Origin: Eledone cirrhosa
Taxonomy: Eukaryota
Length of the DNA: 64,000 nt
Direction: 5' to 3'
Assembly: GCA_964016885.1 (NCBI GenBank)
Contig: OZ024742.1
Coordinates: forward strand, 158,844,001 to 158,908,000
Positions 1,783 to 53,850 of the stretch are shown here, one piece after another. Numbering within the stretch: the first letter of the stretch is position 1; each line of letters starts with the position of its first letter. The translations under genes and the position numbers were made by a program. A model generated the notes under the pieces. That model was not told where the DNA came from. It did not search any database and saw only the letters and a list, made by a program, of their open reading frames with translations.

Positions 1783-1813
<31 letters not shown>

Positions 1814-1882
1814 GCTGGTGCTGGTGGTGGTTGCTGCTGGTAGTGGTGCTGGTGGTGGTGCTGGTGGTGGTGGTGGTGGTGC

Positions 1883-1913
<31 letters not shown>

Positions 1914-1930
1914 GGTGGTGGTGGTGGTGC

Positions 1931-1961
<31 letters not shown>

Positions 1962-1969
1962 GGTGGTGC

Positions 1970-2000
<31 letters not shown>

Positions 2001-2397: not shown

Positions 2398-2856
2398 ATG
2401 ATGAAATACTGTTCGGTTTCTATTTCTTAAGTGATTAAGTTGACAATATAAGCGATGCTTGTTTTTCTAGTTTAATCTTGTCCATTCTTCTCCTACTAGG
2501 TTGTATTTATTAATTATTTACTTCACTTTTGTCCATCCTTACTTATTGAAGATTGCTTCCAATCGACGTTGCCAATTTATCATGTTTTCTGCCTTGCATC
2601 CTCATCCCTTCCTCATCATATCCAGTAGCTGTTAATAGTGTGTTTTGTTGTTATTGTTGTTGTTGTTTTCTACTTCTGGCTAATTGTCTATCTATCTCTT
2701 TCTCTTGTCTAAGCATCATAAGACACATATCATCTCATTCTCTCTCTCTCTATTTCTCTCTCTCTCTCACTCTCTCTCCCTCTCTCTCTCACTCTCTTCT
2801 TTCTTATATATGTGTGTGTGTGAAAGTGTATGTATATATATGTATGCTTACATTCA

Positions 2857-13915: not shown

Positions 13916-14078
13916 TGGACTGGCAATATCGGTAGAGGGTCGGGAACCATGCTTTGCAGCGAGTTCAAATCCCGCCGAGGTTAACTTTACCTTTCATCCT
14001 TATGGGGTCGATAAAATAAAGCACCAGTAATGCACTGGGATAATTGCTGGCCTTGTGCCAAAAGTAGAAACAATTATA
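13916..14078 (+). mobile_element. SINE S1 with internal deletion
   Basis: A box, B box, core and tail TGGCCTTGTGCCAAAAGTAGAAACAATTAT. Confidence 0.9.
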
Positions 14079-16128: not shown

Positions 16129-16212
16129 AATAAGTGTATACCACAACTCGTCCCTCGAATTGAGTGCTCTACCAGCTTTCGATATTCATTATGAAATTAG
16201 GATGCATTATAT

Positions 16213-16399
16213 GGTGGGTTGGCAGTATCGGTAGAGGGTCGGACGCCATGCTTTCCAGCATAGTTACGTCCCTTTACATTCTGAGTTCAAATCCCGCCGG
16301 GGTTAACTTTGCCTTTCATCCTTACGGAGACGGTAAAATAAAGTACCAGTAATGCACTGGGATAATTGCTGGCCTTGTGCCAAAAGTAGAAACAATTAT
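16213..16399 (+). mobile_element. SINE S1, full length
   Basis: A/B boxes, core, tail; flanking direct repeat attatat. Confidence 0.9.
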
Positions 16400-16413: not shown

Positions 16414-16593
16414 TGTAGAAAGGCTTCTACAGGACTAGAACTCTTTCATTCCGGAGAAATCATCAGGAAGCCCTGATGATTTCTCCGGAATGAAACAATT
16501 CTAGTCTGTAGAAGCCTTTCTACAATAAATATTTATACTCTGCTTTGTATTGAGTACCTTACTGTGGATATCCCCGATTGAACCCGGGATAAA

Positions 16594-16595
<2 letters not shown>
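16414..16595 (+). mobile_element. Solo PLE pLTR fragment with fold-back palindrome and hammerhead cores on both strands
   Basis: Palindrome 16414-16524; CTGATGA 16473-16479, GAAAC 16492-16496, GTC 16504-16506, then AATAAA; ends in (TA)n. Confidence 0.65.
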
Positions 16596-16646
<51 letters not shown>

Positions 16647-16651
<5 letters not shown>

Positions 16652-16710
16652 GGGAAATGCAGAGAGTGATATATACATATATATATATCACTCTCTGCAT
16701 TTCCCTGCAT
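16647..16710. repeat. Short palindrome centred on (TA)n
   Basis: atgcagggaaatgcagagagtgatatata / tatatatcactctctgcatttccctgcat. Confidence 0.9.
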
Positions 16711-16789: not shown

Positions 16790-17720
16790 GCTCACAGCCC
16801 TCTACCAAGCGGAAATGGCAATCAGCGGAGACTCCACTTCGACATTCTAGAGGGGATTAGTGGAGGATAAGTGCGACGTCGTTCTCGGGGAAACTCTAGG
16901 CATCGAGGAGGACGAACTGACCAGTCTGTTCGGGAGGACTTTCCTTCCAGGGCCTATGGATAACTTCCAGAGGTCTCTGGCCTGGCAGTGTTACCGAGGA
17001 GCTCTACCAGTTCGAGACAAAATCTACAATGTCGGATGCCCTAGCAGAGATCCTGCCAAAAGGACCTGTCCAAGATGCGAGCAGGACATCGAAACCGTTC
17101 TGCACGCAATTGTTCAGTACCCTGGGGTGACCGACCTGTGGAATTATGTCGAATAGCTGCTGTCACGTGTGGGACGCATCCAGTTGTCAGCCGAGTCCAT
17201 CGTGAGAATCACCTCGCCGCCTTCATTTAAGAACGAAGGAGAGGCGGTTTTCCTCTGTCCGGTGGCTATGGCGAAAGAGGTAATATGGTGGACGAGGTTA
17301 AAAGGACTGAGGGCAAACACCTTTCTCTCCGGACAACAATTTATCCCCTTCTTTAAGTATCACTTCAGAAGGAAGGTGAGAGTGGAGAGAGAGGTGGTAC
17401 ACCCCAGTAAATTCGCTGAAAGGTGGGTGAATGTGGCAAAAATGGGCCTTCTCTGTATATAAACCTGTAGGTTGAGGAAGATGAACAAAGGGAAGACAGG
17501 AACACCTACAAAACGTGTTCCTGGTGTTGAGGGTTGTTCTATCCACGGGGTGTAAAACAACCCTGCAGTAACGTTCCCCCTATTGGGGATTTCAATTGTT
17601 ATTTTATTATATATAGTTTATTGTTATTTATTAATGTTAAAGTTATTTTTATGTAAAACCCCCGCCGTCACGTCTTGTAATGTCCCACTTTTGTACGCCC
17701 CTGTGGCAAATAAAGAAAGA
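16790..17720 (+). mobile_element. 5'-truncated Tx1 LINE (copy C): ORF2 C-terminus and 3'UTR
   Basis: LAWQCYRGALPVRDK..CPRC...ETVLHA zinc-finger region, homologous to copies A and B; ends GCCCCTGTGGCAAATAAAGAAAG followed by (TATC)n. Confidence 0.9.
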
Positions 17721-25365: not shown

Positions 25366-25372
<7 letters not shown>

Positions 25373-25558
25373 TGTTTCTACTTTTAGGCACAAGGCCAGC
25401 AATTACCCTGTACATTACTGGTACTTTATTTTATCGACCCCGTAAGGATGAAAGGCAAAGTTAACCACGGCGGGATTTGAACTCAGATTGTAAAGGGACG
25501 TAACTATGCTAGAAAGCATGGCGTCCAACCCTCTACCGATACTGCCAATTCACCGCCC

Positions 25559-25560
<2 letters not shown>
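25366..25560 (-). mobile_element. SINE S1, full length, embedded in (AAT)n
   Basis: A/B boxes, core, tail; (AAT)n on both sides. Confidence 0.9.
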
Positions 25561-25607
<47 letters not shown>

Positions 25608-25880
25608 TTTCATTTATTGGCCACAAGGGCCGACATATAGGGGACAATACAAAAGACTGGGACAGTGGGGTTTTACAGAAAAATCGAGTAAACAATATGA
25701 ATAAACAAAGTAACAATAACAAAGTCACAATAAAGTAACAATAAAATTACAACAAGAAAAAATTCCCCAATAGGGGGGATGACCACCTAGGGTTCGTTCA
25801 GGTACCCCACCAGTCCTGAACGACCCGACGCTTTGAGAGCACCCTGGAAGGGCACCCCTCTCCTCTTCAAATGTACCTAC

Positions 25881-28800
25881 CTACAGCCGCATGACCAGAG
25901 TAGGCCCACTCACACGGGCCATTCTCGCCACATTCACCCACCTTTCAGCAAATGTACTCTGGGGCAGCACTTCTCTCTCCACCCTCACCTTCCTTTCCAA
26001 GTGAAACTTGAAAAAGTTGATGAGGGATTGACCGAAGAGAAAAGTGTCTGTCTTCAGTCCTTTCAACCTCGTCCACCATACAACCTCTTTCGCTACTGCC
26101 ACCAGACAGAGGAAAGTTGCCTGCCCTTCCTGTCCAAAAGAAGGCGGCGGGTCGATCTTCACTATGGACTCGGCCGATAGCCGGATCCGTTCTACACGCG
26201 ACACAGCTGTTCAACATAACTCCACAAGTCAGTAATGCACGGACACTGGACGAATGCGTGCAGAACGGTTTCGTCGCTCTGCGCGCATCTCGGGCAGGTC
26301 CGTCTGACAGCACTTCCGTGCCTGTAGAGTTTATCTCGAACCGGCAGTGCCCCCCGGTAGCACTGCCAAGCGAGGGATTTTTGGAAATTATCCATCGTCC
26401 CCGGCTCGAAAGTCTTCCGGTACAGACTGGTTAGTTCGACTTCGTTGACTCCCAGAGCCTCTCCGAGTGCGTCGTCGCACTTGCCCACCACTAATCCTCT
26501 ATAGAACTCGAGAGTGGAAGTTCCACTGACCGCATTGCCCGCTTGGTAGAGGGCAGTGAGTGCCTGGCAACATTCCAGATGCCAGTCACCCAGTCTCGGT
26601 CTCTTCTTGACCCAAGACTGCAACTCAGTCAAAGAAACGAGCTGCGGAAAGGCCCGTCTGACAAACGGCGACCACACCTGTTCACCGTTTAGGCAGAATA
26701 TCTGGAGGTGCCGCAGCCTCAGCGCGTGCCTGCGCATCATTAGCCACGGCATGCCCAGCCCTCCACGTAGAGGGTGCTGGCAGCAGATGGACCGCCTCAC
26801 CAGCGGAACCTGACCCCTCCACAAGAATTTGAAGAGGAGTGCTCCAAGATGGCGAGGCGCGAACGGGGACAAGGGACGACAGTCAGACGGTAGTAGATGA
26901 CGGACGCGATGTACGCGTTCGCCACCTCCGCCCGACCTTTCAGTGATAGCTTCATCCCAGCCCATTTCTGGGTGAGACTGACTACCCTGCCCGTCACCTC
27001 GTCCCAATTCTTATCCACCTGGAACCAAACCCCTAGCAACTTTACCGGTTCGTCCGTCCAGCGCCTAACGACGCTGTTGGACGGCATAGACTTGCCTCTC
27101 CAGGTGCCGAGTTGCAAGCCTACTGACTCTTCCGGGTTAAGTTTTGCTCCTGTCAACCTTTCATATTCCTCCAATAAGTTGCCGACCACCTCGATTTCTA
27201 AGGTGTCCGACACCATCACGGTGATGTCGTCCACATAAGCCGACACAGCCTTTCTGCGTCCCGGTTCGAGCGGGATGCCCTGCAACAGCTCCAGCTTCCG
27301 CAGTAAAGACTCGAGAGTCAATACGTACAGAAGGGAGGAGAGAGGGCACCCTTGACGGACCGATCGGGAGACCTGAAACGGTTCCGAGAGGTGGCCATTA
27401 ATTTTGATCATCGAGCAGGTGCCGCTGTGCATTGCAGCGATCTAGCTTCTGAAGACGGGGCCGAAGCCAGCCGCCTTGAGGACAGCCTCCAGGTACCGAT
27501 GGTCGACCCTATCGAATGCTTTCGATTGATCTAAATTGATCAGAGCCCCACCGAAGCCAGGTTTACACCCTACCATCTCTATGATGTATCGCATTAGGTG
27601 GAGGTTGTCGGGTATGGACCTGGTTGGGATTGCGCAAGTTTGCGCCTCCCCAACCAAATCCCCGACGACAAGCGCCAACCTCTTCGCTAACACCCTGGCC
27701 AAAATATTAAACTCTGTGTTGAGCAGAGTTATGGGCCTGAAATTGTCTAATGTGTCCCTCTTGTTCTCGTCTTTCCTTATCAGCGTCACTACTCCCCGGC
27801 TCACAGAACTGGGAATATTCCCGTTTTGCTCCAGTTGCAGTAGAGGGCTTCGAGGAGATTGGAGAACAAGTCTGGCATATTTACGTAAAGCTCGTAGGGC
27901 AGACCATCCAAACCGGGTGACTTGCGCCTCATGCAGCCTACAAGTGCATCCTGAATCTTGGCTCAAGTAATTGGCCTTTCGCAGCGCCCAGCATCAGCCG
28001 TCGAGAGTTGCGGCAAGCCATCGAGGTAGAGACTGAAGTCCGCCACCATCTCTGACCCGCCACTTCTCCCGAACAACCGAGCAAAATGTTGGCGAAAGGC
28101 CTCACACATCCTCTTGGAATCGCTCAGCTCGTGCCCGTCTCGGTCCGTCAAAGAGCGAATCGTGGTTTTATTACCACGCTGCGCCTCTGCCACGCGGGCC
28201 CATCGAACAGCTTTGGTTCCCTCGTTTCTCAGAGCACGCGCCTTAGCTCTGACAATGCAACCTTCGTGTTTCGCATTGAAGAAATGGTCTAATGCCATTC
28301 TCGCCACTAGCACATCAGTTGCAATGCCACTACCAATAGCCTCGTCTAACTTATCTACCAACTCCCCCTCCTTTCTATTTTTCTCTAATGCTACTTCTTT
28401 GCTAAACTCTATCGACATTACTCTAATCTCTCTTTTGAGAGCCCCCCACCATCTATTGTTGATGACTCCCCCTATCAACTTTTTCTTAACTAAATTGTTG
28501 ACCTGGTCCCTGTAAGCCTTACGTGCCGGAAATGACATGTTTAGCTTCCAGTAACCAGGTCCTAACCTACGCGTCTTATCTAGGTCGACCATACAGATCA
28601 CAAACTTGTGATCTGAATAGGCGACCGTTTCAAAACGTGGACAGCTTACACTATTTCTGTCTATTTTCTTAATGAATATCCTGTCTATATACGATCTAGT
28701 TGACCCTATGCGGTTAGCCCAGGTCTATAGTGGCGAATTAGAGAAATCTAGTCGGTATACCTGTCAGACAGTTGGAACTGGCTGATCAGGTTCTTGAGGC

Positions 28801-29292
28801 TTTTGCACCCCCCGCTCCTATCGGATACTCCCACACAGTCCCAGCGTGCGTCTAAGATGCCGTTCCAGTCACCCGCTAACAGTAAAGGGCGAGACGTACC
28901 CAGAAAGGCTTCCAGGCGTCTAAAGAAGTCCGGCCGTCCTGCCCCGGTAGGAGCATAGACGGCCACCAGTCTAAAGGCACCACCTTCATTATTGTTCATG
29001 TCCAGGACAACCAACTTCCCGTCCGGGTCCCGGAAGATCGACCTTACCTCGAGATCCAGGCCTTTCCTAAACAGCACTTCCACCCCGCCTCCCATTCCCG
29101 GCCGGCTAACAGATGCAAAGATCTGATAGTCGTCGAAAATGGGGGCTAGTGCGCGGGTGTCGGAAATCCTGGTCTCGCTGACTGCAATTACATCCATTTC
29201 TATAGACCTGAGGTCGTTGAGCAGGTGACCCTGCTTCCAGGACTATCCCAGGCCTCGAACATTTAAACATCCTACTCTTAATACGGCAATGA
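25881..29292 (-). pseudogene. Tx1-A ORF2 (APE endonuclease, RT, zinc finger), frameshifted
   Basis: LNVRGL, VSET, VYAP, GDWN, GPGYWKLN, FRPITLLN, DQSKAFDRVDH, VRQGCPLS, AYVDD, CPRC..ETVLH. Confidence 0.9.
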
Positions 29293-29321
29293 TGGCAGGT
29301 TAAAGAGAGAGAGAGGAAGAT

Positions 29322-31323
29322 TTACTTACCTTCCGGGCTCTTGTGAAGGTCGGGTTGTTTGACCTCCATAGTTAGTGGGGTTTCTTTTGGGAACCCCTTT
29401 AAAAGTCTTGAAGGGTGTTTTACGTTCGGGGTTCCCACGTCCCGAGGAAAGCTGTCTCGTATTTCTTTGAATATGTCGAGCGACATTCGCACCAGAACCA
29501 AATCTTCCGGCACGCGAAATGTGCTCGATTTAAAAATGTCCCCCTCTTTTTGTATATTTTCACTTCGTGCTACGAGGGCCATCAGTTCCTTGTTGGCCCT
29601 CCTGACGAGCACGAAGTTTTGTATGTTTTGTTGGTGTGATTTTATTTGTTTGCGTGGCTGTGGTGGTGATGGTTTGGGTGGTGTTGTTTCGGTTGTATCT
29701 GTGTTTGTTGTGAGTGCGGTGTCTGTGGTTTCAGATGTTTGTGTGTATATTTGTTCTTGCGTGTTTCGGATGTTTGCGTTTGGGGGATTCTGGTGATGGT
29801 GATGGTGGTGTTGATGTTGGTGTTATTGGAGAGATGTTTGCGTGGGTGTTGTCTGCGTTTTTTATTGTGGGTGCTTTTGTGTTTTGTTGAGTTTTTTTTT
29901 TTTTCTTTTTGTGTTTCCTTTTTTGTATTTTGGGGGATTTGGGATTTCTCTCATTTTCACTACTGGTAGATGAGGGGTCTGTGTCTGTAAGTGTGTCTGT
30001 ATGTATGTTTAAGGTTTTATTGGTGTGTGTATTTTGGGGGGAGGGGGAATAAGACAGCTTTCCTCGTTTCTCCCCTGGGTGGTCAATGTTGGTGGTGGTC
30101 TTTCTATTGGTGTTGTTGTTGGTGGTTCTGCCGGTGCAGGTGTTGGTTGTGGTCCTCGCCCCGGCGTCGGCAGCAGTGGATCCTTTCGACCCCTTGCCTC
30201 TTTCAGCAGTTGAGGGCAGAAGGCTCGCAAATGGGTTTTTTCCCCACAAACAAAACACTGCGGCCTTTTGCCTTCGGTCATAATGTGAATGACCGTCCCA
30301 TTCTGAAGGCGGATGTGGTCTGGGATTGTCTTCACATTCTCGGGCCTGATCTGGAGAAGGATCTCCAGGTCAACCCCGGACCAGTCCTCTCTGGCCGTTC
30401 TGGTCACTTCTATAGGGACTGTATCCGTCCCCTCCACAATCACACATCCCAGAAGCCACCACATGTCAAGTCCTGGTGGGATTCTGGGAATGCGGAGACG
30501 GGCCGTTTTTTTTACCATGTGGGAGGGGTACATTATGACCTTGCTGGTTTTGCAAGGAGCCATAACGTGTTTCATCGCGAGGGCTTCTGACTTGAACAAC
30601 ACTGAAATGGTGCCGTACTGTCTGCCCCTCTCTATGTACTGGGTGTCTTCTCTGATGCACCTCAGCGCGACTTCGACATCTTCTTGTGGGATTAACGCTG
30701 CCCTTTTGAAACCAAAAGGGCAGTGAGATGCATCTATAATGCACCGTTTTGCGCTCCACTGCCTCAATAGCTTCTACCGGGACAGTTAAGTTGGCCCAAG
30801 TTTTCTCTTGCTTAATGAGCTTCCATGCCTGGGCCAACTTTTCATCTTTGTTTGAGAGGTCCATCTTGAAGCATGGCCTCTTTTTTGCTGCTGCCGCAGC
30901 GAAAGTGGTCTTGTTTTCGTTGGGGGTGTTGTTGGTGTTGTTGTTAGCACTGTCGCTGTTATCATTGTTGTCTTTGTTGCCACCGTTGTTCTCGGTGCAG
31001 TTGGTATTGTTGCTGTTGGTGTTGTCGCTATTTGTTTTCATGTTAGTGGTGTTGATATTGTTGTTGTATTTGTTATTTTTTTTTTTTTTGTTATCTGTAT
31101 TTTCGTTGTCGCTGTTACTGTCATTTTTTTCAAAATTAGAGTTCTTATTGGTATCATTGGTGTATTTGTTTACCTTGTTTGTGGTGGTGTTTGTGTTATC
31201 AATGTGTGTTAATTTTGCTGTAGCGCTCCTCTCAACTTCTACGTCGCTGTCGCACGACAGCCGACATATCGCTGGGGGGCGTGGCTCAACCATGTTTTTT
31301 TTTCTTCGTAAATTTTTTAACAT
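29322..31323 (-). pseudogene. Tx1-A ORF1 (gag-like, CFVCGEKTHLRAFC), frameshifted
   Basis: ORF pieces 30466-31323, 30009-30767, 29731-30258, 29322-29612; Asn-rich N-terminus. Confidence 0.8.
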
Positions 31324-31745
31324 GTAAAAAAAAGTTCAAATATTTGGGCCAAAAGGCCCAAATATTATACTTTGCCCTTCACGGGGCAAAGTCTAAGGGC
31401 TTATATCCCTTACACAACAAGAAATATTTAACAACAAATAATTTAAACAGGCAAATAAAGCGACTTACTGTGAGCGAGCAAAATACGTCCATAATAATAA
31501 TGATTTCTTTATTAACCACAAGGGTTTACATAAAGTAGACATTAAGGACAGTGCAGGACAATACAAGACGGTACAAATGGGCATTTCTGCGTGTAAAAAC
31601 AGAGGATGTAACAAAAAAATAACAATGAAAAATTCCCCAAAAGGGGGGAGACTTCGGAGGGACATTTATGGAGAAAGCCCATTAAAAGGCCACAGTGACC
31701 TTGACGACCAGGGCAAGTGCCCTCTCCCAGTTTTCCACCTGTAAT

Positions 31746-34700
31746 TTACAGGCACATACTCAGAGTAGGCCCATTCACTCGGGCCATTCTTGCTTCTCTC
31801 ACCCATCTTTCAACAAAATGCTGGGAAGAGAGCACTTCCCTCTCTACGCTGATTTTCCTTTTCAAATGAAATTTGAAAAAGTCAATCAGGACATCACCGA
31901 AGAGGTAAGTGCTCGTCTTCAGCCCTTTCAAACGTGTCCACCATACTATCTCTTTCGCCATGGCCACCAGACAGATAAAAACTGCCTGCCCTTCCCGGCT
32001 AAAAGAAGAGGGCGGGGGCAATCCTCACGATGGACTCAGCTGATAGCTGGATCCGTCCTACACGCAACAGCAGGTGTTCGACATAAACCCACAAGTCAGC
32101 AATTTTCGGACACTGGACGAGTGCGTGCAGGACGGTTTCGTCGCCCTGCGCGCATCTCGGACATGCCCGGCTGACGGCACCTCCATGCCTGTAGAGTTTA
32201 TCCCGAACTGGCAAAGCTCCTCGGTAGCACTGCCAGGCCAGGGATTTCTGGAAGTTGTCCATAGGCCCTGGCCCGAAAGTTCTTCCGAAGAGATTGGCTA
32301 GTTGATTTTCGTCGACGCCTAGAGTTTCCCCAAGTACGTCGTCGCTCTTCCCCTCCACTAATCCTCTCTAGAACGCCAAGGTGGTGTTTCCACCGATCAC
32401 ATTGCCCGTTTGGTCGAGGGCTGTGAGCGCCTGAAGACATTCCAGTCTCCAAGCGCTCCATCTCGGTCTTCGCTTGACCCAGGACTGCAGCTCCGTTAAG
32501 GAAACGAGCTGGGGAAAGACACGTCTAGCAAACGGCGACCACACCTGAGGAAGAGGTGGAGATGTCGTAGCCTTAGCGCGTGTCTGCGCATCATCAGTCA
32601 CGGCATGCCCAGCCTTCCACGTAGCGAGTGTTGACAACAGATGGACCGCCTGACCATCGGAGAGCGTCCCTTCCACAAAAATCGAAAGAGCAAACGCTCC
32701 AGCGCAGTCAGGCGGGGCTTAGGACAAGGTACGACGGTCAGGTGGTAGCAGATGACAGACACGATGTACGTGTTAGCCACCTCCCCTCCAACCTTTCAGG
32801 GATAGCTTCCTCTCCGCCCATTTCTGGGTGAGAGAAGCCACCCTGCTCATCACCTTGTCCCAGTTTTTGTCCGTCTGGAGGTCTGGACCGAACCAGACCC
32901 CTAGCAATTTAACCGGTCCGTCCGTCCAGAGCCCGACGACGCTGTTGGACGGCATGGACCTGCCTCTCCAGGTGCCGAGCTGCAGGCCCACTGACTTTTC
33001 CTGGTTGATCATTGCTCCTGTCACCGCTTCGTATTCTCTTAGTGTAGTGCCGATCGCCTCGATGTGTTTGGCGTTCGACACCACTACGGTGACATCATCC
33101 GCATATGCTGACACGGATCTTCCGCATCCTAGTTCGCGCGGGACGCCCCTCAACGTCTCCAGTTTGTGCAGTAATGGCTCGAGAGTCAATACGTACAAGA
33201 GGGACGAGAGGGGACATCCTTGGCGGACCGAGCGCATGATGTTGAACGGTTCCAAAAGGTGACTGTTCACTCTCAGCACAGAGCAGATGTCGCTGTGCAT
33301 GGCAGCGATCCAGCCTCTGAAGACGGGGCCAAAGCCAGCCGCCCTCAGGACTGCCGCTAGGTAACGATGGTCGACCCTATCGAAAGCTTTCGACTGATCT
33401 AAATTGATCAAGGACCCACCCGTGCCAGGTTCCCTAGCTACCCTCTCTACGATGTGTCGCATGAGGTGGAGGTTGTCGTGGATGGATCTGTCGGGAATCG
33501 CGCATGTCTGCGCCTCTCCCACAAGACCACCAACGACAAGTGCCAACCTCTTTGGTAGCACGTTGGCCAAAATCTTGAACTCTGTGTTTAGCAGAGTTAT
33601 GTGCCTGAAATTATCTATGTTATCCCCCTTGTTCGGATCATTTCTTAGCAGTGCCACCGCTCTTCGGCTCACAGAGCTGGGAATTCTCCTGTTCTGTTGC
33701 CAGTTGCAGTAGACGTCCGCCAAGAGGCCTCCGAATAAGTCTGGCATTTGTACGTAAAGTTCATAGGGCAGACCATCCAAACCAGGCGATTTACCCCCTG
33801 TGCAGCCAGTCATTGCCTCCCGTACTTCAGCGTCTGTTATCGGCTTTTCGCAACACTCCGCCTCAGTGGCCGAGAGCCGCGGCAGTCCGTCGAGGTAGAC
33901 ACTAAAGTCCATCCCTCGATCCGGCCCGCCGCTGCCCCCGAACAGTTGAGCGAAGTGTCGCTGAAAAGCTTCACACATTTTCCCGGGATCGAGTAGGATG
34001 CGCCCGTTGTGGTCCACCAAAGACCGGATCGTGGCTTTGTTTCCCCACGGGCCCATTGAACGGCTTTCGTCCCCTCGTGTCTGAGAGCACGCACCCTAGC
34101 TCTGACAACGCAGCCTTAGTTCTTTGCATTGAAGAATTGGTCAAGGGCCAGTTTCGCCGCAAGTACGTCGGTCGCGATGCCTTTGCTAAGCGCCTCGTCT
34201 AATTTTCTAACTAGTTCTCCCTCTGCTCTATTTTTCTCTATAGCTAAAGCCTTACTAAACCTAATGGACTCTATTCTAATCGCTCTTTTCAGAGCAAACC
34301 ACCACTTGTTGTTGACGATGGCCCCCGTCAACGCTCGCTTAACTAGTTCGCTAATCCGGTCTCTGTAGGCCTTGCGCGCTGGTAAGGACGCGTTTAGCTT
34401 CCAATAGCCGGGTCCTTGTCTATGAAGCCTATCTAAGTCAAGCACACAGATCACGAATTTGTGGTCCGTATAGCTGACTATCTTGAATTGTGGACAGCTT
34501 ATGCTAGACCTATCTATTTCCCTACAAAATACTCCATCTAGATATGATCTGGATGACCCTATGCGATTTGTCCACATTGGCACATTTGGGAAATCCAATC
34601 GGTACCTGTCAGACAGTTCAAAATGCCTGAGCAGGTTGGTGAGGCTCTTGTACCCTCCTCCCCTATCCACTAATCCCACACAGTCCCAGCGTGCATCTAA

Positions 34701-34913
34701 GATCCCGTTCCAGTCGCCCACTAACACTAGAAAGGTCTCCAGACGCCGGAAGTAATCAGGCTGCCCTGCTCCTGTCGGGGCATAGACGGCCACTAGCCTG
34801 AAAGCTTGCCCTTCTTCGCTGGTCATGTCCAGCACCACCAACTTACCTTCTGGGTCCAGGAAGATGGACCCCAAGCCACGCGTATTTATGCTGCCTATTC
34901 TGAGTGAGGTCAT
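31746..34913 (-). pseudogene. Tx1-B ORF2 with an internal deletion in the APE N-terminus
   Basis: INTRGLGS jumps to IFLDPEGK (the SET motif region present in A is missing); KSPGLDGLP, KAFDRVDH, VRQGCPLS, AYADD. Confidence 0.9.
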
Positions 34914-34947
34914 GTTGAAATGGAGTGGAAAAGATGGGAAAGACCAC

Positions 34948-37062
34948 TTAACGTACTTTTCGTAGAGGAAGGATAGTTTCTCCATCCCTTTTCACTTGAT
35001 CGTCTGGTGAAGGGACCGGTGAATCGCCCCTTCGGCTGCTCGTCGGCTCTTCTGTGAGTATATCCGAATATACCCTCCGGTTGAGTGTCCCTCCTAGGTC
35101 TCTGAAATCACCAACTGCGTTGGGGAATATCGTTTTAATATTTGTGTATTGTTTCTGTGCTATTTTTACCAGCCTTATGTTCGTTGGTGTTTTGATTGGT
35201 GCTGGTATTATGCAGTCGTGCTGTGAAATGTCTGTGTTCAATTATGTTATTAGTTTCTTGTGTGTATTTATTGCTGTGCATTTGTTTTTCTGAGGGTGGG
35301 TGTGGTTCTGCTATTTTCTTGTCGTTGTTGCTGGGTGCGTGTGTTTTGTTGTTGTGTTTGTGATGTTGGTGCTTGTGGTGGTGGTGTTGAAGGTGTTGTT
35401 GTTGTTTGCGGTGGGGTTGCCGCCGGTGGTGATGGTGGTGCTAGTGTGGGTGGTGATGGTGTTGTGTAGTGTTGATGTTGTAAGTCTCTTTCCAGTAACC
35501 TTTACCCTTTTTTCATTTCTTTCCTCCCTTTTCGAAGGCGACGATGCGCTGCTTCAGCGTTTGTGCCTTCTTGCGACCTTTTGCCATCCCTCTCCCACCT
35601 CACACTCCATGTCCGATTCTGTGAGGTCGGGGAGGGGTACCAGCTCCACTCTTTCACTTGTTGTTGTTGGTGATGTTTGCAGTGGAGTCTCTGTTGGAGC
35701 TGCAGTTGGTATTACTCTTGTTGTTGTTAATACTTCCACTGCTGCTGCTGTTCTTGATTTCCGTGGCGTGGGTATGGGTTCCACGGACCTATCCTTCCTG
35801 GTTGCCGCCTGTCCTGTTGCTGGTAGCAGTGGAGCCGGAGGGGGGGTTTCTCCTTTCTCGGGGTCTTCTCGTTGCAGAAGGCCCTGAGGTGAGTCTTCGA
35901 TCCACAGCGAAAGCATTTCGGGCGTTTGCCCTCAACACTTATGGGCAGTTGAGTGCCGTTATCGAAGTCTATCACATCCGGGATAGCTTCGATGCACTCC
36001 TGGTTGGTTTGGATTAACATCTCAATGGAGGTTCCGACCCAATCTTCTCGTACTTTGTCTGTACTTGCAGTACAGTTGTTTTGTCCTCAATTCCGACGAG
36101 GACAGACGCGGCCAGCCAAGAAGGGGCCATCCCGGGGGTGGGGGGACGTGGGTCAGTTTGACCCTCATAATTTTTTGCCCGCAGTAGGAGGGCACCAACA
36201 CCATTTCCTCGCTCCTTATGGTCACTAAGGATTGAGCCTTTGCCTCCTGGGGTGTGGCAAAAAGCACGTCCACGGTGGCATATTTCTTTGCTCGGGTGAT
36301 ATGCGTTTTCCGCTGCCACACAGACCCTAAGGCTTTTTGTATTTGAGCCTCTGTGGCTCTTTCAACTCTACGGGATTTTGTGCTTACTGTACGGTACGTG
36401 ACCGTACAGTGCTGTTGGGTTTCGAAAAATTTTTCGGCTGCCTTGCAGATTGCTCGGTGTCCGGTTTTCGTCACCATCTTCTTTGCTTCCTGTAATTCCT
36501 CATTTGTTATGAGGATGGTTTCCAGGTTCTTTGCGATACCTGCAAACGAGATTGGTTTTTCTTTGCTGCTGTTGTTGTTGTTGTTGTTGTCAGAGCTGCT
36601 GTTACTTTTGTTGTTGCTGCAGGTACTACGACTACTGCCGCCGCCGCTGTTGCTGTGGTTGTTGTTGTTGTTGCTGCTGATGCTGTTGTTGTTGCTGTTG
36701 CTGCTAATGCTGTTGTTGTTTATGCTGCTGCTGTTGTTTTCCTTGTCACCGTTGCTTCTGCTGCTGTTATTACGGCTGCTACTGCTATTATTCATGACGT
36801 CAGACGAATGAAATGGGTTTTCGTATTTACCGCACACCTTTTTCGTCGTTGTCGTCGTCGTGGAGAAATGTTCCATGCTTTGCACGTGATTTTGGAAACT
36901 ATTTTTCTTTACTGGCGTCGATTGCGAAAGAGAAAGGAGGGAGAGAGACACATTTAGAAAAGGGAGAGAGAGAGACAATCTTCTCTCTGCTGTAGTGACG
37001 ATTGAGGAAGAAGAAGACGGAATGAGTGGGAGTGACTTGTGAAAATTCTTTTTCGTAGTCAT
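34948..37062 (-). pseudogene. Tx1-B ORF1 (CFRCGSKTHLRAFC), frameshifted
   Basis: ORF pieces 36022-37095, 36014-36319, 35727-36020, 35554-35916, 34948-35241; Ser/Asn-rich N-terminus. Confidence 0.8.
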
Positions 37063-37296
37063 GTTTTTTTGGTTTAAAATAAATATTGGGCACAAAACCC
37101 CAATAAGCGGTTATTTAACCCCGAAGGGCCAAATAACGGGCAGAAAGACCCCTCTCACGAGGAGGAGGGTGTTTTTGTCTACAATTTGGTTAAAGTTTTA
37201 AACAATTTACAATTGTTATAGCGGTCAAAATTTACAATACCTTACAGAGCCGAGCCTCCGTCAACCATGGCATTCAATAATAATAATAATAATAAT

Positions 37297-38014: not shown

Positions 38015-41000
38015 TGTTCGTCTACAGCGTGATAGTGCCACACAAAAATCAACGGGAGTGATGAAATCACCGGTGGTTATGTAACCATACATTCACCAAT
38101 CCTCGATAAGAGTGTTTAAATGTCGAACCTAAACAGTTCGAATAACGGTGAAGTGGAGACTGGAATGTCATGTAACAGACTCTCACCCAGAAGGTGCTCC
38201 CTGGCTCAGCAGCAGGGACCTGGCTGTCAACCAAATACTGCTTGTGTCGGAAGAAGAAGAAGAAGAAGAAGAAGAAGAAGAAGAAGAAGAAGAAGAAGAA
38301 GAAGAAGAAGAAGAAGAAGAAGAAGAACCAACTGGACGAAAGAATTGAATAGAACTCTTATGCAATGTTACGTGAAGAGTAACCCCAAGGAGAAAGGCTA
38401 TAGGAAACGGATGCATAACATCTGGAACGAGATTGGTCTATTTAAATTAGATGAACAAATGGCTGGATAAGCGAGCTAGAACTGGAGGAACTGAGCAGAG
38501 AGATTAGGTTGGAAATGGTGAGTGGAGTATGCCAGGCAAACGAGCCAGTGGGAAATGAAGGTGAAGAGGTTGAGAGAACGGAGGAACCATCCGAAGCAGA
38601 CAATGATCTGAATCCTGAAATAAATAATACCTGGAACAAAGACACGGCCGTTGAGGAGATGAATGCTGACGGGCTAGGACAAGATTTGGTTGATATCCTA
38701 AATTTAGTGGTAGATGAATTGAACAATGATAGTGGGAAACCTATGAACCTAAGATTTGTAGACAGGAAAAAGTTAAAAGAAACAACAGCTAAGGTAAACA
38801 AAGTCATCCCATACCTTGAGGCGAGGAGCCTTCACCAGTGCAACAATATCCTCAAAGCAACAGCAAATGCGGTGAGGAAATTACTTGGTATAAAAGCGAG
38901 AGGAAACAACAAACAAGAAAGATCAGAGCCTTGGTGGAAGAAACGACTGAATGGTCAAATCAGGGAAATGAGAAATGACATTGGAAAGCTTGAGTCCCTA
39001 CTGAATGGGACACTAAAAAACATAGACATTAAAAATAGACTGGAAATAAAGTACAAAACTAGGAGGAAAAAGCTAAATATTATCATAGAGGAACTGAAGC
39101 AACGCATTGTAGCAAAGAGTGCAAAAATTAGGCGATACGAGAGCAGAGTCAGTCAGTAAAGACAGAACCGCATGTTTGACAACAGCCAGAAGATGCTGTT
39201 TGGACAGATTGAAGGGAAAGAAAGAGGCAACGACTTGATCCCTGAGGCGGAACAAACTAAGACATTCTGGAGAGGAATATGGGAGCAGGATGTTAAACAT
39301 AATGACCAGGCAGTGTGGATTGAGACAGTACAAAAGGAGATTAGTGAGCAGGCACACCAACAAACTGATTTGAGTATCACAGTTGAAACTCTTAAGGGGG
39401 CAGGCCAAAAAACTAACCAACTGGAAATCACCAGGCCCAGATGGTGTGCAGGGGTATTGGATTAAAAATATAACATCCCTCCACCCGAAACTGACAACCA
39501 TGTTCAATGACTGCTTGATGTCAGGTGAGGTACCAGAGTGGTTGACAAAAGGTACCACAGTTCTGGTAATGAAAGACCGAATCAAGGGTAATGATGTTAC
39601 CAACTATAGACCTATCACATGTCTGTCCGTAATGTGGAAACTGTTGACAAGCATTATGTCTGAGGAAATCTACCATCACCTCCACACAAACAACTTGTTA
39701 CCGGACGAACAGAAAGGATGCCGAAAGAAGTCCCGTGGTACAAAGGACCAGTTACTTATTGATAAGATGGTAATGGGGAATTGCAAGAGGAGACACACTG
39801 GTCTTGCCATGGGATGGATAGACTACAAAAAGGCATTTGACATGGTGCCTCATTCTTGGATCACCAAAAGCCTAGAGATCTTCAAGGTGGCAGATAACAA
39901 CAGACAGTTGTTGGGCAAAAGTATGAAGTCCTGGAAAACAGAGTTAACATCAGCTGGAGAATCCTTGGGAGGCGTGAAGATCAAGAGAGGTATCTTCCAG
40001 GAAGATAGTCTGTCCCCTCTGTTGTTTGTCCTTGCCCTGATGCCCCTGACCATTATACTGCGAAAAGTGAGAGCAGGATACAAGTTGGGAAAGAGAGAGC
40101 TTACCATTATGCACCTCCTCTTCTTGGACGATCTTAAGCTCTTCGGGAAGAGTGAGAAGGAGTTGCATGTGCTTGTTGACACTGTCCGTATTTTCAGCAA
40201 TGATATATGTATACAATTTGGTATTAGTAAGTGTGGAGTCCTTGTGATGAAGAGGGGTAAATTGAGCAGAAGCAACGGAATCCAAGTACCGACAGGTGAG
40301 ATGATAAAGGAAATTGACACTGAAGAAGGATACAAGTATTTGGGTGTTCTGGAAGCTGATGACATCAAGAACAAAAAAATGAAAGAATTGATAAGATCTG
40401 AATACATTCGGAGAGTAAGGGGCGTATTAAAGTCACATCTGAACAGTAGGAATGCCATAAGTGCAGTAAATTCCCGAGCTGTGTCTATTATTAGGTACAG
40501 TGCGGGAATTCTGAGATGGAATGTTGCTGAACAAAAAGAAATGGATGGGAAGACTAGAAAGCTATTGACTATCTATAACATGTTCCACAAGAGGAGTGAT
40601 GTCGATAGACTCTACTTAAGGAGATATAAAGGTGGAAGAGGTCTTATCAGCATAGAGAACTGTGTTCAGATAGGAGAAAAACAACCTACACAAATACGTG
40701 ACTGATAGTAAGGAGCAAATGCTCAGAACTGTACTAAAGGAGAGGACAATAGACCAGGGGATATCCAAGGAGGAAATAACAACGAGGAGAAAGAGCAGCC
40801 TTCATGAAAAATCCTTTCATAGTACCTTCTTTGAGAAAACTGAATTCAGAGATCCACAGACATGGAACTGGTTGAAAAGAGGAGACCTTAAAAAGGCTAC
40901 AGAAGGAATGTTAATGGCTGCGCAAGAGCAGGCCCTCAAAACGAAGTGGTTGAAACACCATACTTACAAGGAGGAGGCTAGCCCACTGTGCAGGATCTGT

Positions 41001-41633
41001 GGAGAGAGAGAGGAGACTGTGGCTCACAGTGTATCCGAGTGTAAACACCTAGCCCAGACTCACTATAAAGGCTGGAGACATGATGGGCAGGGTGATCCAC
41101 TGGCACCTATGCAAAGTAAACAATTTACCACATTCTGAGAAGTGGTATGAGCATAAGCCAGAGTCGCTGATAGAAAACGATCAGGTGAAGGTGTTGTGGG
41201 ATTTTAGGATACAGACGGACAAGAAACTGGAACACAATAGACCAGACCTGGTGGTTTTGGACAAAGAAAAAAGGTTGTGCCTGATTGTAGATGTAGCCTG
41301 CCCATTCGACACGAGAGTGCAAGAGAAGGAGAGGGAGAAAATTAACCGATACTAGGACTTAAAGTGGGAGGTAAAAAGGATTTGGAACTGCCATGAAGTC
41401 AAAGTGGTCCCGATTGTCATAGTCGCATTTGGTACTATCTCAAAAAGTTTCCAGGGATGGTTAAAGAAAATTGGCCCCGCCACGCTTTTTGGAACGCTTC
41501 AAAAGGCATGCTTGCTGGGAACAGCAAGAACCCTCCGATACGTCCTGAATATCTGAGGCTGCAGGTAGTGGCTTGATATTCATTTCAACAAACTTTCCAG
41601 TTAACTAACATCAATGACTAAGACTCAAAGAAC
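38015..41633 (+). mobile_element. Dong/R4-clade RLE LINE, copy A, near full length, inactivated
   Basis: NWKSPGPDG, YRPITCL, QKGC, WIDYKKAFDMVPH, GIFQEDSLSP, FLDDLKL, CRICG..ET..H..C, RPD..VD..CP endonuclease; (TAA)n tail. 5' boundary approximate. Confidence 0.9.
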
Positions 41634-41642
41634 AATAATAAT

Positions 41643-42799: not shown

Positions 42800-45700
42800 T
42801 CATTCTTAAGCCACGCAATGCTCACATTAAGGAACCACTCATGATAATAACAATTTAAAAAACAACAAAAAAGAAAACCCCGTGACCAAGAAATACCGGG
42901 ATGGCGGCCGGCGGGGAATAGCCGTGTCTCTAGGGGAGGACGACCACTCTAGTCTTGGTTGACACTCGTCCTAGAAGTGGTAACACGAAATGATTACCCC
43001 TTGGCGGATAAGGATAAAACGCGACAAAATAAAGTAAATGTCTAATGATAAAATCTCATACCGGATCGGCCGTCACCCGGGTCAAAAAGGGCCGCGTCCC
43101 TCAGAGAGGAACCAGACTGGGGTCGAAAAATCAGTTAATGGTTCAAACCTTCCCATCACTTCGGAGCTGGAGACCTCCCATAACCGGAATACTCCTACTG
43201 TTGGCCCTCCATGCTCACCACCAAGAAATCCAAAGAAAAAGAGAGAAAAATGGTCAAGGGAAGATAATAAAGAAGTCCTTGAGGATTTCTACACTGCCAT
43301 GTACTACCCATCAAATACATCGAATACAGAACAGACATATATCAACTGGAAAAAGAAACATCCCGAAAACAGAGGCTATATTGACAGTAACAAACTAGCC
43401 AATATACGAAGAAATATTGTAAAAAAAAAGTTACTAACTGATATAGAAATTGATCAGATGAAGCTATTAGCACAAAGTCAGCGAAGGGAAAATGAAACAT
43501 GTGTCAGTGAAAATGAGGTAAATTGTAACACTTCGAATCCCAGGGTTGGGGCGGAATCACTGACAACAGAACAAATTAAAGAAAGGATCGAAAAAGTGGA
43601 GGGAGTGCATGCTCAAGATGAAACTCCAAATGAAAATAATGAGATCGTAAATGATAAAGAAATGAATGAGAATGAACTTGCCAACTTGAAGGATGAAATT
43701 ATGATCGAATGGATGAAAATGAAAGAATCTGACATGGGGGAACGAGACACCCTCCCTAAGATCCAGAACTCCAAACAGAACCAAAAGATAATACACAAGA
43801 CTAACATAATTCTCAAAAACATTATCATCAGAAACAAACTAAACATTACTGACTTAAATCATCTCTATTATGCAGCGGCTAAAGTCACCACTCACTTATG
43901 TGGGGTGAAGATGAAAAAACAAAGGAATTCCCACAAAAAATCTACTTGGCAAGAGAACATCAATCGCCAAATAAACTTTCTCCGATCTGACATAGAAATT
44001 TTAACAAACTATAAAGTAGGTGAACATGTTAAACAAACTAAACTTAGAAAATTGAAAAGAAAGTACAGTATAAAATCAACAAGTGACATAGACATGCTGA
44101 TAGAAATAATCAAGCAAAAAGTGTCGGCCCAAGCTGCTCGTATAAGGCGATTTGAAAAACGATCTAGATTCTATAAGGACAATAATATGTTCAAAAACAA
44201 CCAAAGAAACTTCTACAGAAAAATTGGTAAGTCAACAATAACTGCTAAATCAATACCACCCAAGGAGGAAGTGCAAGAATTCTGGGAAAAGATCTGGGCC
44301 GAAGAAAAAATTCATAATATACATGCCCCATGGATAGACAGACAAATGAAAGATACAGCTCACCTTGAGGAACAAATATGGGAAAATATAACAGTTGAAC
44401 AGTTGCGTTTGGCTCTAAGAAAAACCAGCAAATGGAAATCCCCAGGAAAAGACAAAATACAAATTGTTTGGATAAATGCCTTCACAGAGTCTCATGCGCT
44501 GTTAGGCAACTTTACAATGAAATAGTTAAGGAGCCAGAAAAGATACCATCATGGCTAGTTAACGGCATTACATTCCTGCTTCTGAAGAATGATGAGACAA
44601 ACAATCCCAAAAATTACAGACCGATAACTTGCTTGACCACAATGTATAACATTTTGACATCAGTCCTAACTGAATATACATATGACCACCTGATAACAAA
44701 TGACCTATTTCCCATTGAGCAGAAAGGGTGTAAACGAGGCTCATATGGCTGCAAGGATCAGCTTTTTGTTAACAAAATGATACTGGAAGATTGTCATAAT
44801 AGACACAAAAATCTATCAATTGCTTGGATAGATTACAAAAAAAGCATTCGATAGTTTGCCACACAGTTGGATTGAAAAATGTTTAGAGATTTTCAAAATA
44901 TCTCCCGTTGTCAGGAGGTTTTTATCATTCAGTATGAAGACATGGAAAACGACACTCCTTTTGAATAGTGAAACAAAATCACTGGAAGCTGGAGAAGTTA
45001 ATATTAATTGTGGAATTTTTCAGGGTGACTCTTTATCACCGCTTTTATTCTGCATCGCACTTATACCATTAAGTAAAATGCTCAATGAAACAAAACATGG
45101 ATATAAAGTCTATGACAAAACCATTAATCACTTGTTCTACATGGATGGCCTGAAACTATTTGCAAAAAATGATGAACAATTGCAAGGGCTATTATCCACT
45201 GTGGAGCAGTTCAGTGATGACATTAAAATGGAGTTTGGACTAGATAAATGCGCCAAAGCAACGTTCACCAGAGGAAAGCTGCTGAAGAGTTCAGACATTA
45301 ATCTTGATCGGGGGAACGTGATAAGAGAACTTGATCAAGAAAAAACTTACAAATATCTAGGTGTTTGTGAAGGAGACGTAATCAAGCACTCGACAATGAG
45401 GGAAAGGATAAGGAAGGAATGTTATCGCAGAGTAAGAGCAATCTTAAGAACGGAATTGAATGCAAGGAATAGGATCGATGCCATAAACACGCTTGCCATA
45501 CCAGTAGTAACCTACAGTTACAATGTCATCAACTGGTCAAGCACAGAGATCCGTAGGCTCGATACAAAAATTCGAAAATTCTTAACCATGCACAGAATGC
45601 ATCACCCTAAGGCAGATATAGATAGAATATATCTCCCTAGGAAAGAAGGAGGACGTGGGTTAATCCAGTTAGACATTGCGTTGAAAACTGCAACAATTGG

Positions 45701-46832
45701 ATTATCTACATACTTAAGGGAATCACATGATTGGATGATGAAACTCGTTTTGAAACACAAAAGTATCAAAAGAGCATACTCCATTACAAAAGATGCACAA
45801 AGATACAGTAATGGACTACAAATTTCAGAAGTCCCACTTACTGCTGAAATGGAAAACACAGAAAAAGCAAAGCAGGTAAAAGTAACTGCAAAGAAAGAAC
45901 TGCTACAGAAACTGGCTAAGAAATGGCAAGAAAAGCCTCTGTATGGAAAATACCCAGAACGAGCTAACAATCCTGATGTTGACAAAACTTTAACCCATCA
46001 GTGGTTGGCATCCTCTGGACTGAAATTGGAGACTGAAGGACTGATTATATCAGCACAAGATCAGTGTCTGCCAACAAAAAATTACGAAGCCAACATAATA
46101 AAAAATGGATGCAGCCCATTATGCCATGTATGTAAAACACAACCAGAGACCATTGACCATATAATTTCAATGTGCAGTCCTATAGCTCCAACAGAATATC
46201 TAAACAGGCATGACAGAGCTGCACAATACATACATTGGATAATGTGTAAGCATTTTGACCTGCCCCATCAAAATAATTGGTGGGAGCATCAACCACCTCC
46301 CATACTTGAAAAAGATCACATCGCAATCTTGTGGAACTTTAGCATCCAAACAGACTGAAAAATAGATGCAAATAGACCTGATATAATATTGAAGGACTTT
46401 AAAAAGAGGGTATGCTTGCTAATTGATATGTCCGTTCCAATAGACAAGAATGTATCTACAAAAACATTTGAAAAATTGAGCAAGTATAAGGACCTGGAGA
46501 TAGAAATTGGAAAAATGTGGAAATTGAGAACTAAAACAATACCAGTGGTTGTAGGCGCTCTAGGAATGATACCTAAGGGGTCTAATGATTACTTATCGCA
46601 AATCCCAGGAAACCCGCGTATAGGAGAAATACAAAAGATAGTTCTAATGGGAACTGCCCATATACTAAGGAAGATTCTGTCAATATAAGTACATCACAAG
46701 TCTAAACACCTAAAGATGCATGTGTGAGTATGTATGTTCTTTCTTGAACATGGCGGACCTTGTTGTCTCTTGAGGTCACTGGTTGTGACTTGGTGACAAC
46801 TCGTATGAACATAAAGCAAGATAAATGCAGCT

Positions 46833-46833
<1 letters not shown>
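42800..46833 (+). mobile_element. Dong/R4-clade LINE, copy B (different family), near full length
   Basis: ORF 43038-46688 broken by frameshifts and a stop: KWSREDN, KWKSPGKD, YRPITCL, GIFQGDSLSP, YMDG (catalytic D lost), CHVC..ETIDH..C, RPD..IDMSVP; (TAA)n tail from 46834. Confidence 0.92.
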
Positions 46834-46907
<74 letters not shown>

Positions 46908-47139: not shown

Positions 47140-47143
<4 letters not shown>

Positions 47144-47402
47144 CTAAGGGGTCTAATGATTACTTATCGCAAATCCCAGGAAACCGCGTATAGGAGAAAT
47201 ACAAAAGATAGTACTAATGGGAACTGCCCATATACTAAGGAAGATTCTGTCAATATAAGTACATCACAAGTCTAAACACTAAAGATGCATGTGTGAGTAT
47301 GTATGTTCTTTCTTGAACATGGCGGACCTTGTTGTCTCTTGAGGTCACTGGTTGTGACTTGGTGATAACTCGTATGAACATAAAGCAAGATAAATGCAAC
47401 TG
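47140..47402 (+). mobile_element. Dong-B family 3' fragment
   Basis: Near-identical to 46569-46833; flanked by (TAA)n. Confidence 0.92.
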
Positions 47403-47424
47403 TAATAATAATAATAATAATAAT

Positions 47425-47872
47425 GTGAAGGTGCTGTGGGATTTTAGGATACAGACGGACAAGAAACTGGAACACAATAGACCTGACCTGGTGGTTGTGG
47501 ACAAAGAAAAAAGATCGTGCCTGATTGTGGATGTGGCCTGCCCATTCGACACGAGAGTGCAAGAGAAGGAGAGGGAGAAAATTAACCGATACCAGGACTT
47601 AAAGTGGGAGGTAAAAAGGATTCGGAACTGCCATGAAGTCAAAGTGATCCCGATTGTCATAGGCGCACTAGGGACTATCTCAAAAAGTTTCCAGGGATGG
47701 TTAAAGAAAATTGTCCCCTTCACGCTTTTTGGAACGCTTCAAAAGGCATGCTTGCTGGGAACAGCAAGAACCATCCGATACGTCCTGAATATCTGAGGCT
47801 GCTGGTAGTGGCTTGATATTCATTTCAACAAACTTTCCAGTTAACTAACATCAATGACTGAGACTCAAAGAG
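47425..47872 (+). mobile_element. Dong-A family 3' fragment
   Basis: Homologous to 41185-41633 with an open RLE frame; flanked by (TAA)n. Confidence 0.92.

Positions 47873-47981: not shown

Positions 47982-53850
<5,869 letters not shown>

Follow-up and report, generated by a model that had tools for sequence, protein, structure and literature searches.

The locus and its elements

We analyzed a window of 64,000 nucleotides (nt) from Eledone cirrhosa (assembly GCA_964016885.1, contig OZ024742.1, positions 158,844,001 to 158,908,000; the genome behind it comprises 3.0 Gb in 1,796 contigs). Between positions 25373 and 37275, mobile elements are stacked head to tail on the minus strand: an (ATT)n array is followed by Tx1-B, a long interspersed element (LINE), a short ATT run, a second LINE, Tx1-A, another (ATT)n array and finally a short interspersed element (SINE), the elements being listed with their coordinates in Table 1. 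Our subject is the 3' tail that this SINE has in common with the Tx1 elements, a small hairpin placed equally far from the element end in both, and what this tail suggests about the machinery that copies the SINE. Microsatellites are abundant in the window, and R4/Dong-like and Penelope-like elements are present alongside the Tx1-like ones; a 1.2-Mb genome sample, evenly spaced and weighted to the largest contigs, added RTE elements and a CR1-like fragment. This repeat mix is similar to the one listed for Octopus vulgaris (PMC13282606, cited, as are all papers below, from the parts consulted).

The original prediction placed the LINEs in the L1 group, and their domains agree: the second open reading frame (ORF2) contains APE endonuclease (PF03372), reverse transcriptase (RT; PF00078) and zf-RVT (PF13966) domains by Pfam, and its profile matches L1 ORF2p with E 4e-119, against 9e-38 for R2. 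Pfam assigned no family to the ORF1 fragment of Tx1-A, in which we read a CCHC motif; a CCHC knuckle in ORF1 is typical of Tx1. The sole informatively named homologue among the 120 listed is a TX1 protein. Target-specific insertion, described below, also fits the Tx1 clade. In a quick RT tree of 44 rows, rooted at the midpoint, with two loci lacking a usable ORF omitted, no reference from L1 proper and its deep forks open, the elements of this genome group with unnamed proteins in a clade that has support, among a protein named TX1 and an element adjoining a stretch like U2 small nuclear RNA (snRNA). The tree is compatible with a Tx1 placement. One Tx1-like element from a metagenome (L271) has an A-rich end followed by U2-snRNA-like sequence, and its 3' hairpin differs; we take the flank to be U2 snRNA, which would make the element Keno-like.

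With its A and B boxes and tRNA-like fold, the SINE qualifies as tRNA-derived, although ARAGORN called no tRNA in the window. The label of Meta-core SINE that had been attached to it is not supported: two short Meta motifs were not found at up to two mismatches in any of four copies, and alignments of bivalve MetaSINEs bear no resemblance to it by eye. Two short CORE motifs were likewise missing from all four copies, and a resemblance to the 3' end of the BivaCORE-SINE2 CORE is faint and judged by eye. The window contains 12 SINE tails (13 pattern matches, one of them spurious within a Tx1 ORF), and 130 were found in the 1.2-Mb sample, which extrapolates to a genome copy number of ~300,000.

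A 3' tail common to the Tx1 elements and the SINE

All four hairpins of the original prediction, in Tx1-A, Tx1-B, Tx1-C and the SINE, are present and belong to whole families rather than to single copies. The exact terminal motif recurs in 26/30, 25/26 and 23/25 of the best genomic matches to the A, B and C ends, a choice of copies biased to young ones. When 174 ends were clustered, at least seven Tx1 end types emerged; they fall into two groups, terminating in (ATT)n or (ATCT)n, and all have a 3-bp core stem and a loop of CTTGT, CCTGT or CTGGT. The loop had been described as kept; it is CTTGT in Tx1-A, Tx1-B and the SINE but varies among the Tx1 families. The tail originally read for Tx1-C needs correction, its family ending in (ATCT)n. 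Such (ATCT)n-ending families (L363-L373, L070) likewise stack head to tail in their own microsatellite. About 25 Tx1 ends (25 of 28 matches) lie in the 1.2-Mb sample.

The likeness between the tails is short but placed alike. Scored with a target-anchored profile that was made solely from eight copies of Tx1 ends, SINE ends have a median of 12.7 bits, which was reached by none of 6,054 other sites preceding ATTAT and by one of 20,000 sequences obtained by shuffling a single SINE end; SINE- and Tx1-like contexts had been taken out of the former set, which lowered that control, and the shuffle is the cleaner test. When the short SINE tail was aligned locally and without anchoring to five 150-nt Tx1 3' ends, every best match came to lie 1-3 nt from either end, and its score was equalled by 0-93 of 500 shuffles (weakest for B). 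The distance from the hairpin to the element end is equal in the SINE and Tx1, as originally noted, and the ATT-type Tx1 families terminate in GAAA and two bases, then ATTAT, in the same way as the SINE. Poly(A) was absent after every Tx1 or SINE end seen. A scan of the whole window for hairpin plus tail returned 13 matches, namely three Tx1 ends, eight SINE ends and two unrelated sequences. The core GGC-CTTGT-GCC is common to the short and long forms of the SINE.

Outside this genome, the terminal hairpin was found at the 3' end of none of 80 metagenome loci from distant relatives (24-46% identity), many of which lack their 3' end, and viral contigs yielded no relatives. With distant relatives lacking it where their ends are visible, the hairpin looks lineage-specific. 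Rfam gave matches at the level of microsatellites only, below the gathering score. We also looked for a Tx1 family with the swapped 3' stem of the SINE: a genome-wide pattern had 47 matches, 30 of which were inspected and proved to be degraded Tx1-like ends, copies of the SINE or unrelated sequence. As no such family was among these, the candidate was rejected.

Covariation and folding of the hairpin

In a set of seven Tx1 and two SINE sequences, the three inner (core) pairs of the stem are intact in all nine. The covariation score is 0.347, a value as high being found in none of 500 shuffles, and slid controls stay at or below 0.111. Two compensatory changes are seen in the core: the SINE has G-C in place of C-G, and Tx1-B has A-U in place of G-C. 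To this extent the stems have changed in the compensatory way originally proposed, but strong covariation is not supported; how few changes are involved is taken up below.

RNAalifold, applied to eight Tx1 3' untranslated regions (UTRs), returned two hairpins only, the terminal one and an upstream CCCC-TATT-GGGG. The latter, which one family has as CCTC-TATT-GAGG, occurs in the aligned Tx1 families and three times in the window. The predicted probability of the terminal hairpin in Tx1 3' UTRs is 0.7-0.99, with pair probabilities of 0.91-0.99 in Tx1-A. For some Tx1 ends a longer lower stem is predicted, which was discarded as its register is inconsistent and its support not beyond that of shuffles. 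In the contigs of run X1, no variant reaching 15% was present in the hairpins, to which we attach no weight, a known common variant being missing from the same table.

Insertion targets and internal controls

ATTAT follows 99 of the 130 SINE ends, with a background of 0.27% per position, and target duplications of 8-22 bp were found in 67 of 120 SINE copies, with 18% in mismatched controls; some duplications begin with GTTAT on both sides. Only four of the 67 duplications are pure ATT, so that the (ATT)n tail originally ascribed to the SINE is largely target DNA; the copy with its hairpin at 14048, for example, continues into ATTAT and (AT)n. At least four ATT units precede 45 of 49 full-length Tx1 starts (background, 76 of 5,617 ATTAT sites), whereas runs of this length occur at 7 of 130 SINE ends, which makes the SINE less choosy than Tx1-A and Tx1-B. 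Pairing of a longer AUU tail with the primer could explain this gap, and so could the driving of the SINE by another subfamily. A truncated Tx1-A copy (L024) is flanked by a 16-bp nonrepeat duplication that is initiated by ATTAT, like those of the SINE, and includes part of an earlier SINE copy; Tx1-A was thus active after that SINE had inserted.

Two internal controls concern the role of the tail itself. An element-blind, filtered scan for direct repeats initiated by ATTAT found 21 pairs, 16 of which flank hairpin-ended inserts, all of them SINEs. The other five comprise one shifted duplicate and four pairs without a hairpin, while nine control motifs give 1-14 nonhairpin pairs; the scan contained no excess of hairpin-less ATTAT insertions. 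The second control is an older sister SINE (L094, L100, L196, L197), which has the same head and core joined to an unrelated, hairpin-less tail and ends in (ATAC)n: ATTAT follows none of its 12 tail copies. Both the scan and the sister SINE favor tail-dependent copying.

Divergence of the SINE and Tx1

Two forms of the SINE occur, a young, short one, whose 96 copies differ from their majority by a median of 5.4%, and an older, longer one (26 copies, 16.4%). Tx1-B copies in the sample diverge by 3-12% from their majority (n = 5), and their identity to the copy in the window is 89-95%. On these rough figures, the divergences of the SINE and Tx1 appear to overlap, which is in keeping with the concurrent activity expected of partners. 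SINE insertions within the bodies of Tx1-A, Tx1-B or Tx1-F, sought to order the insertions, were not found, and one locus inspected for the same reason (L153) is too rearranged to read.

Weighing the explanations

Several observations weigh against a Tx1 element recognizing the tail of the SINE. The common stretch amounts to only 14-16 of 25 positions as read from sequence, while bivalve pairs have 35-61 bp in common at 72-95% (PMC11481361). The best 3' sequence matches of the SINE are the (ATCT)n-targeting families D and F, although its target is that of A and B; none of its 15 commonest flank types, covering 127 of the 130 ends, begins with ATATC or TATCT. The rarity of pure-ATT duplications at the SINE contrasts with the long-array preference of full-length Tx1. 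The covariation comes from only two independent core changes, with none among SINE copies, and the fourth stem pair is formed in just three of eight cells of the family alignment. The upstream hairpin of the Tx1 3' UTR is missing from the SINE, and so is AATAAA, which is invariant in the eight Tx1 end copies of the profile. The main weakness of the hairpin model is the poor folding predicted for the hairpin in the SINE RNA: across 51 full-length copies, the predicted median hairpin probability is 0.02-0.03, and it reaches 0.56-0.67 once pairing is capped at 40 nt. No predicted fold exceeds its shuffles.

Some of these points would be expected if the Tx1 machinery copied the SINE without recognizing the hairpin, specificity being provided by the pairing of AUUAU with the nicked target and the motif being either a leftover of the tail's origin or a signal in another role, such as 3' end formation next to AATAAA, RNA stability or the binding of ORF1p. 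The weakly predicted hairpin and the missing AATAAA speak for it, as does a similar hairpin in the Tx1 5' UTRs, where it cannot be a priming signal, and SINEU and Tx1-Mar offer a precedent of common targets without a common 3' end (PMC4494074). However, in short SINE copies the hairpin positions agree with the majority in 90-98%, with some neighboring positions at 64-87%, the pairing survives the stem swap, and hairpin-less ATTAT insertions are not in excess. On balance we think copying without recognition unlikely.

The 5' UTR hairpins raise a question of origin. Those of Tx1-A, Tx1-B and a further type, X, have a related last hairpin ahead of the ORF1 start. Two 5' UTR/ORF1 starts, B and X, are found on B-type 3' ends (L026, L114, L128, L134, L222, L254, L267, L058 [X-type 5' UTR]), the X type being joined to B-type 3' ends in three loci, and this suggests 5' end replacement. 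The X hairpin is identical to that of the SINE over its inner 11 nt in 4 of 15 copies, and most of the others have the loop CTTGA. Alignments of the X-type 5' UTR to the SINE tail score 27-31, unmatched in 500 shuffles, and the 3' ends score at most 29, a further point to be set against a 3' origin of the motif. The SINE tail might therefore derive from, or mimic, the X-type hairpin of this Tx1-B variant, with one protein binding a hairpin at the 5' as well as the 3' end of the Tx1 RNA; Tx1 would still mobilize the SINE, and the origin and role of the motif would change. Yet the 5' UTR hairpins have a conserved outer stem, which the SINE lacks, and a variable loop, and with several hairpins per UTR, a single match is less surprising; the X-type match may be chance, be the origin of the SINE tail or mark a second binding site. 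The spacing to GAAA and the element end, moreover, agrees with the 3' end. We consider a 5' UTR source for the tail highly improbable.

A different LINE, be it R4/Dong, RTE, CR1 or an unsampled one, might also mobilize the SINE, the likeness to Tx1 then reflecting old common ancestry or chance. R4/Dong elements use the same microsatellite and adjoin SINE tails, the targets of the SINE are looser than those of Tx1-A and Tx1-B, and our survey is a 1.2-Mb sample in which the CR1-like element (L104) has no usable 3' end. Even so, the sense strand of R4 ends in (AAT)n and stands tail to tail with the SINE and Tx1 ends, which means that R4 uses the opposite strand; on this ground and for its different ends, R4/Dong was rejected as a partner. 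Where RTE ends were seen, they were (TA)n-like or (GAT)n and had no hairpin. Seven end regions of R4, RTE and Penelope were aligned with the SINE tail, and none has a co-terminal match to it, the better LINE match that would have spoken against Tx1, although the Penelope ends and one RTE end are placed approximately and the set, to the detriment of the Tx1 case, includes no CR1 3' end. For this lack of a match, three families of RTE and two end regions of Penelope were dismissed as partners. Mobilization by another LINE seems to us rather improbable. One RTE family (L094, L036, L053, L055, L067), whose long 3' UTR is repeated and terminates in (GAT)n, is a candidate partner of another SINE.

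Features of the window

Coordinates are collected in Table 1, which also includes the elements outside the stack. The trinucleotide array near the start of the window gives rise to spurious long ORFs.

Table 1. Elements and sequence features located in the 64,000-nt window.
Feature	Position	Strand	Description
Tx1-A	25606..31490	-	near full-length LINE, ORF2 frameshifted; starts ~9 nt short of other full-length copies
Tx1-A ORF1 fragment	30009-30773	-	with CCHC knuckle
Tx1-A endonuclease	28748-29242	-	
Tx1-A RT	27442-27993	-	
Tx1-A zf-RVT	26192-27010	-	
Tx1-A terminal hairpin	25619..25631	-	GGCC-CTTGT-GGCC, then AATAAA, GAAA and target
Tx1-A second 3' UTR hairpin	25765..25776	-	CCCC-TATT-GGGG, conserved in Tx1, not in SINE
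Tx1-A last 5' UTR hairpin	31343..31362	-	ahead of ORF1 start
(ATT)n array	25559..25605	-	separates Tx1-A from SINE; tail plus target duplication
SINE adjoining Tx1-A tail	25373..25558	-	full-length, tRNA-derived (A and B boxes, GGCGG/CCGCC acceptor-like stem)
Hairpin of this SINE	25387-25397	-	GGC-CTTGT-GCC
Tx1-B	31502..37275	-	full-length LINE with frameshifts
Tx1-B ORF1	36022-37110	-	
Tx1-B endonuclease	34116-34991	-	
Tx1-B RT	32773-34095	-	
Tx1-B terminal hairpin	31514..31526	-	AACC-CTTGT-GGTT
Tx1-B second 3' UTR hairpin	31635..31646	-	CCCC-TTTT-GGGG
Tx1-B last 5' UTR hairpin	37086..37103	-	TTGGG...CCCAA
Tx1-C	16790..17719	+	5'-truncated member of (ATCT)n-ending family
Tx1-C terminal hairpin	17697..17707	+	GCC-CCTGT-GGC
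Second 3' UTR hairpin, third occurrence	17577-17588		
SINE copy	13916..14072	+	hairpin TGGC-CTTGT-GCCA at 14048-14060
SINE copy	16210..16394	+	full-length
Remaining SINE tails	6527, 7132, 7454, 9064, 24528, 41649, 46913, 46990, 47912	-	
R4/Dong-like elements	38455-41640, 43038-46840, 47140-47870		two families, (AAT)n ends, tail to tail with SINE copies in same microsatellite
Penelope-like element	57190-60537		RT and GIY-YIG; inverted repeats of 930 nt and 468 nt
Penelope-like fragments	48694-52214, 55902-57173, 61763-63717		
(GGT)n-type trinucleotide array	340-2430		long, imperfect
Short palindromes	16420-16520, 16580-16710		two, near-perfect, about 100-130 nt, between SINE and truncated Tx1-C; possibly small DNA-transposon derivatives

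Discussion

Overall, our analyses make it quite probable that the SINE is mobilized by the Tx1 lineage. The partnership is a likely one, judged from sequence, on five grounds: the co-terminal likeness of the tails, the ATTAT landing site with its L1-type duplications, the lack of a better match among the rival ends tested, the roughly overlapping divergence and the lack of an excess of ATTAT insertions without a hairpin. The original prediction that Tx1 drives the SINE is upheld in these respects, while the question of which subfamily does so is clouded by the mismatch between the best-matching ends (D and F) and the target (A and B). That the Tx1 ORF2 protein recognizes the tail hairpin of the SINE is a narrower claim, toward which we lean with some reservation.

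A mechanism can be outlined in which these parts would fit together. Transcription of the SINE, with its tRNA head, by RNA polymerase III would run past the tail into the ATTAT beside it, and the Tx1 ORF2p may then bind the 3-bp stem with its C-Y-N-G-U loop, an interaction that would set the start of reverse transcription. The APE endonuclease would nick the strand opposite ATTAT, and the AUUAU of the RNA could pair with the freed primer. Each insertion would add a new ATTAT and so prepare the site for the next one, building head-to-tail pile-ups of SINE and Tx1 such as the one at 25373-37275. With its longer (AUU)n tail, the Tx1 RNA would prefer long arrays, as seen for full-length Tx1-A and Tx1-B, the SINE needing ATTAT only. 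A bolder proposal, which we hold to be doubtful as a whole, is that of an animal Tx1 lineage with stringent, structure-based recognition through a 3-bp hairpin at both ends of its RNA, hijacked by a SINE of several hundred thousand copies, the landing site being set by the 3' repeat of the RNA and not by the endonuclease alone.

If true, this would be an intermediate, naturally occurring in an animal, between LINEs of stringent recognition and the mammalian L1, which recognizes poly(A) only. Whether the L1 group was ancestrally stringent and later relaxed to poly(A) is an open question that has been argued from plant and algal pairs (PMC3472496). A tail-sharing pair formed by an animal Tx1 and a SINE, with a 25-nt signal, several natural variants of stem and loop and two types of target, (ATT)n and (ATCT)n, would allow it to be tested in a compact system. 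Such a pair would also identify what probably drives a SINE of ~300,000 copies and would account for the head-to-tail stacking within ATT microsatellites.

The partnership of a LINE and a SINE mimicking its tail is known for other LINE groups, and a Tx1 version was not found described in the literature searched. No Tx1/SINE pair with a common 3' stem-loop appeared there (the comparison draws further on PMC4758252, PMC5804259 and PMC3531059), though entries of Repbase, Dfam and SINEBase, figures and supplements lying outside that search may hold one. The pair table of PMC3472496, in the part consulted, has no Tx1-named partner and no cephalopod SINE.

Recognition of this kind is known from the L2 LINEs, for which assays and binding have demonstrated that the loop is specific and the stem exchangeable (PMC4176376). 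ZfL2-1, ZfL2-2 and UnaL2 resemble our elements in having a small 3' stem-loop ahead of a short repeat; they belong to a different clade, and where their recognition was assayed, that of Tx1 is inferred, with a stem of 3-4 bp. Among Tx1-type elements, Kibi and Koshi also sit in simple repeats, (TC)n and (TTC)n, in place of the (ATT)n and (ATCT)n found here, and the sections consulted of their description name no partner SINE (PMC4494074). The same paper describes SINEU and Tx1-Mar of crocodilians, where, as here, the mobilization of a SINE by Tx1 was inferred from target preference and concurrent age. Those SINEs have snRNA heads and a Mariner target, and no LINE with the 3' end of SINEU-1 was found, whereas our SINE has a tRNA head and a 3' motif in common with its presumed partner.

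In mollusks, conserved-domain SINEs of bivalves are tRNA SINEs that swap tails between LINE partners (PMC11481361, PMC4824008), much as the sister SINE here has another tail; the partners named there are CR1, CR1-Zenon, L2 and Nimb, and the parts consulted do not name Tx1. Close counterparts are found within the L1 clade itself. The original prediction contrasted Tx1 with an L1 that recognizes poly(A) only, which is true of mammals, but stringent pairs exist in maize and sorghum (ZmSINE2/3 with LINE1-1_ZM) and in Chlamydomonas (SINEX-3_CR with L1-1_CR) (PMC3472496; PMC3747384). As in those plants and algae, a LINE of the L1 group and a tRNA SINE have a 3' end in common, and the hairpin in it keeps its loop while the stem varies; there, the pairs have about 50-80 nt in common and the algal one ends in poly(A), while here the LINE is an animal element of the Tx1 type, the common stretch is about 25 nt, poly(A) is absent and microsatellites are targeted.

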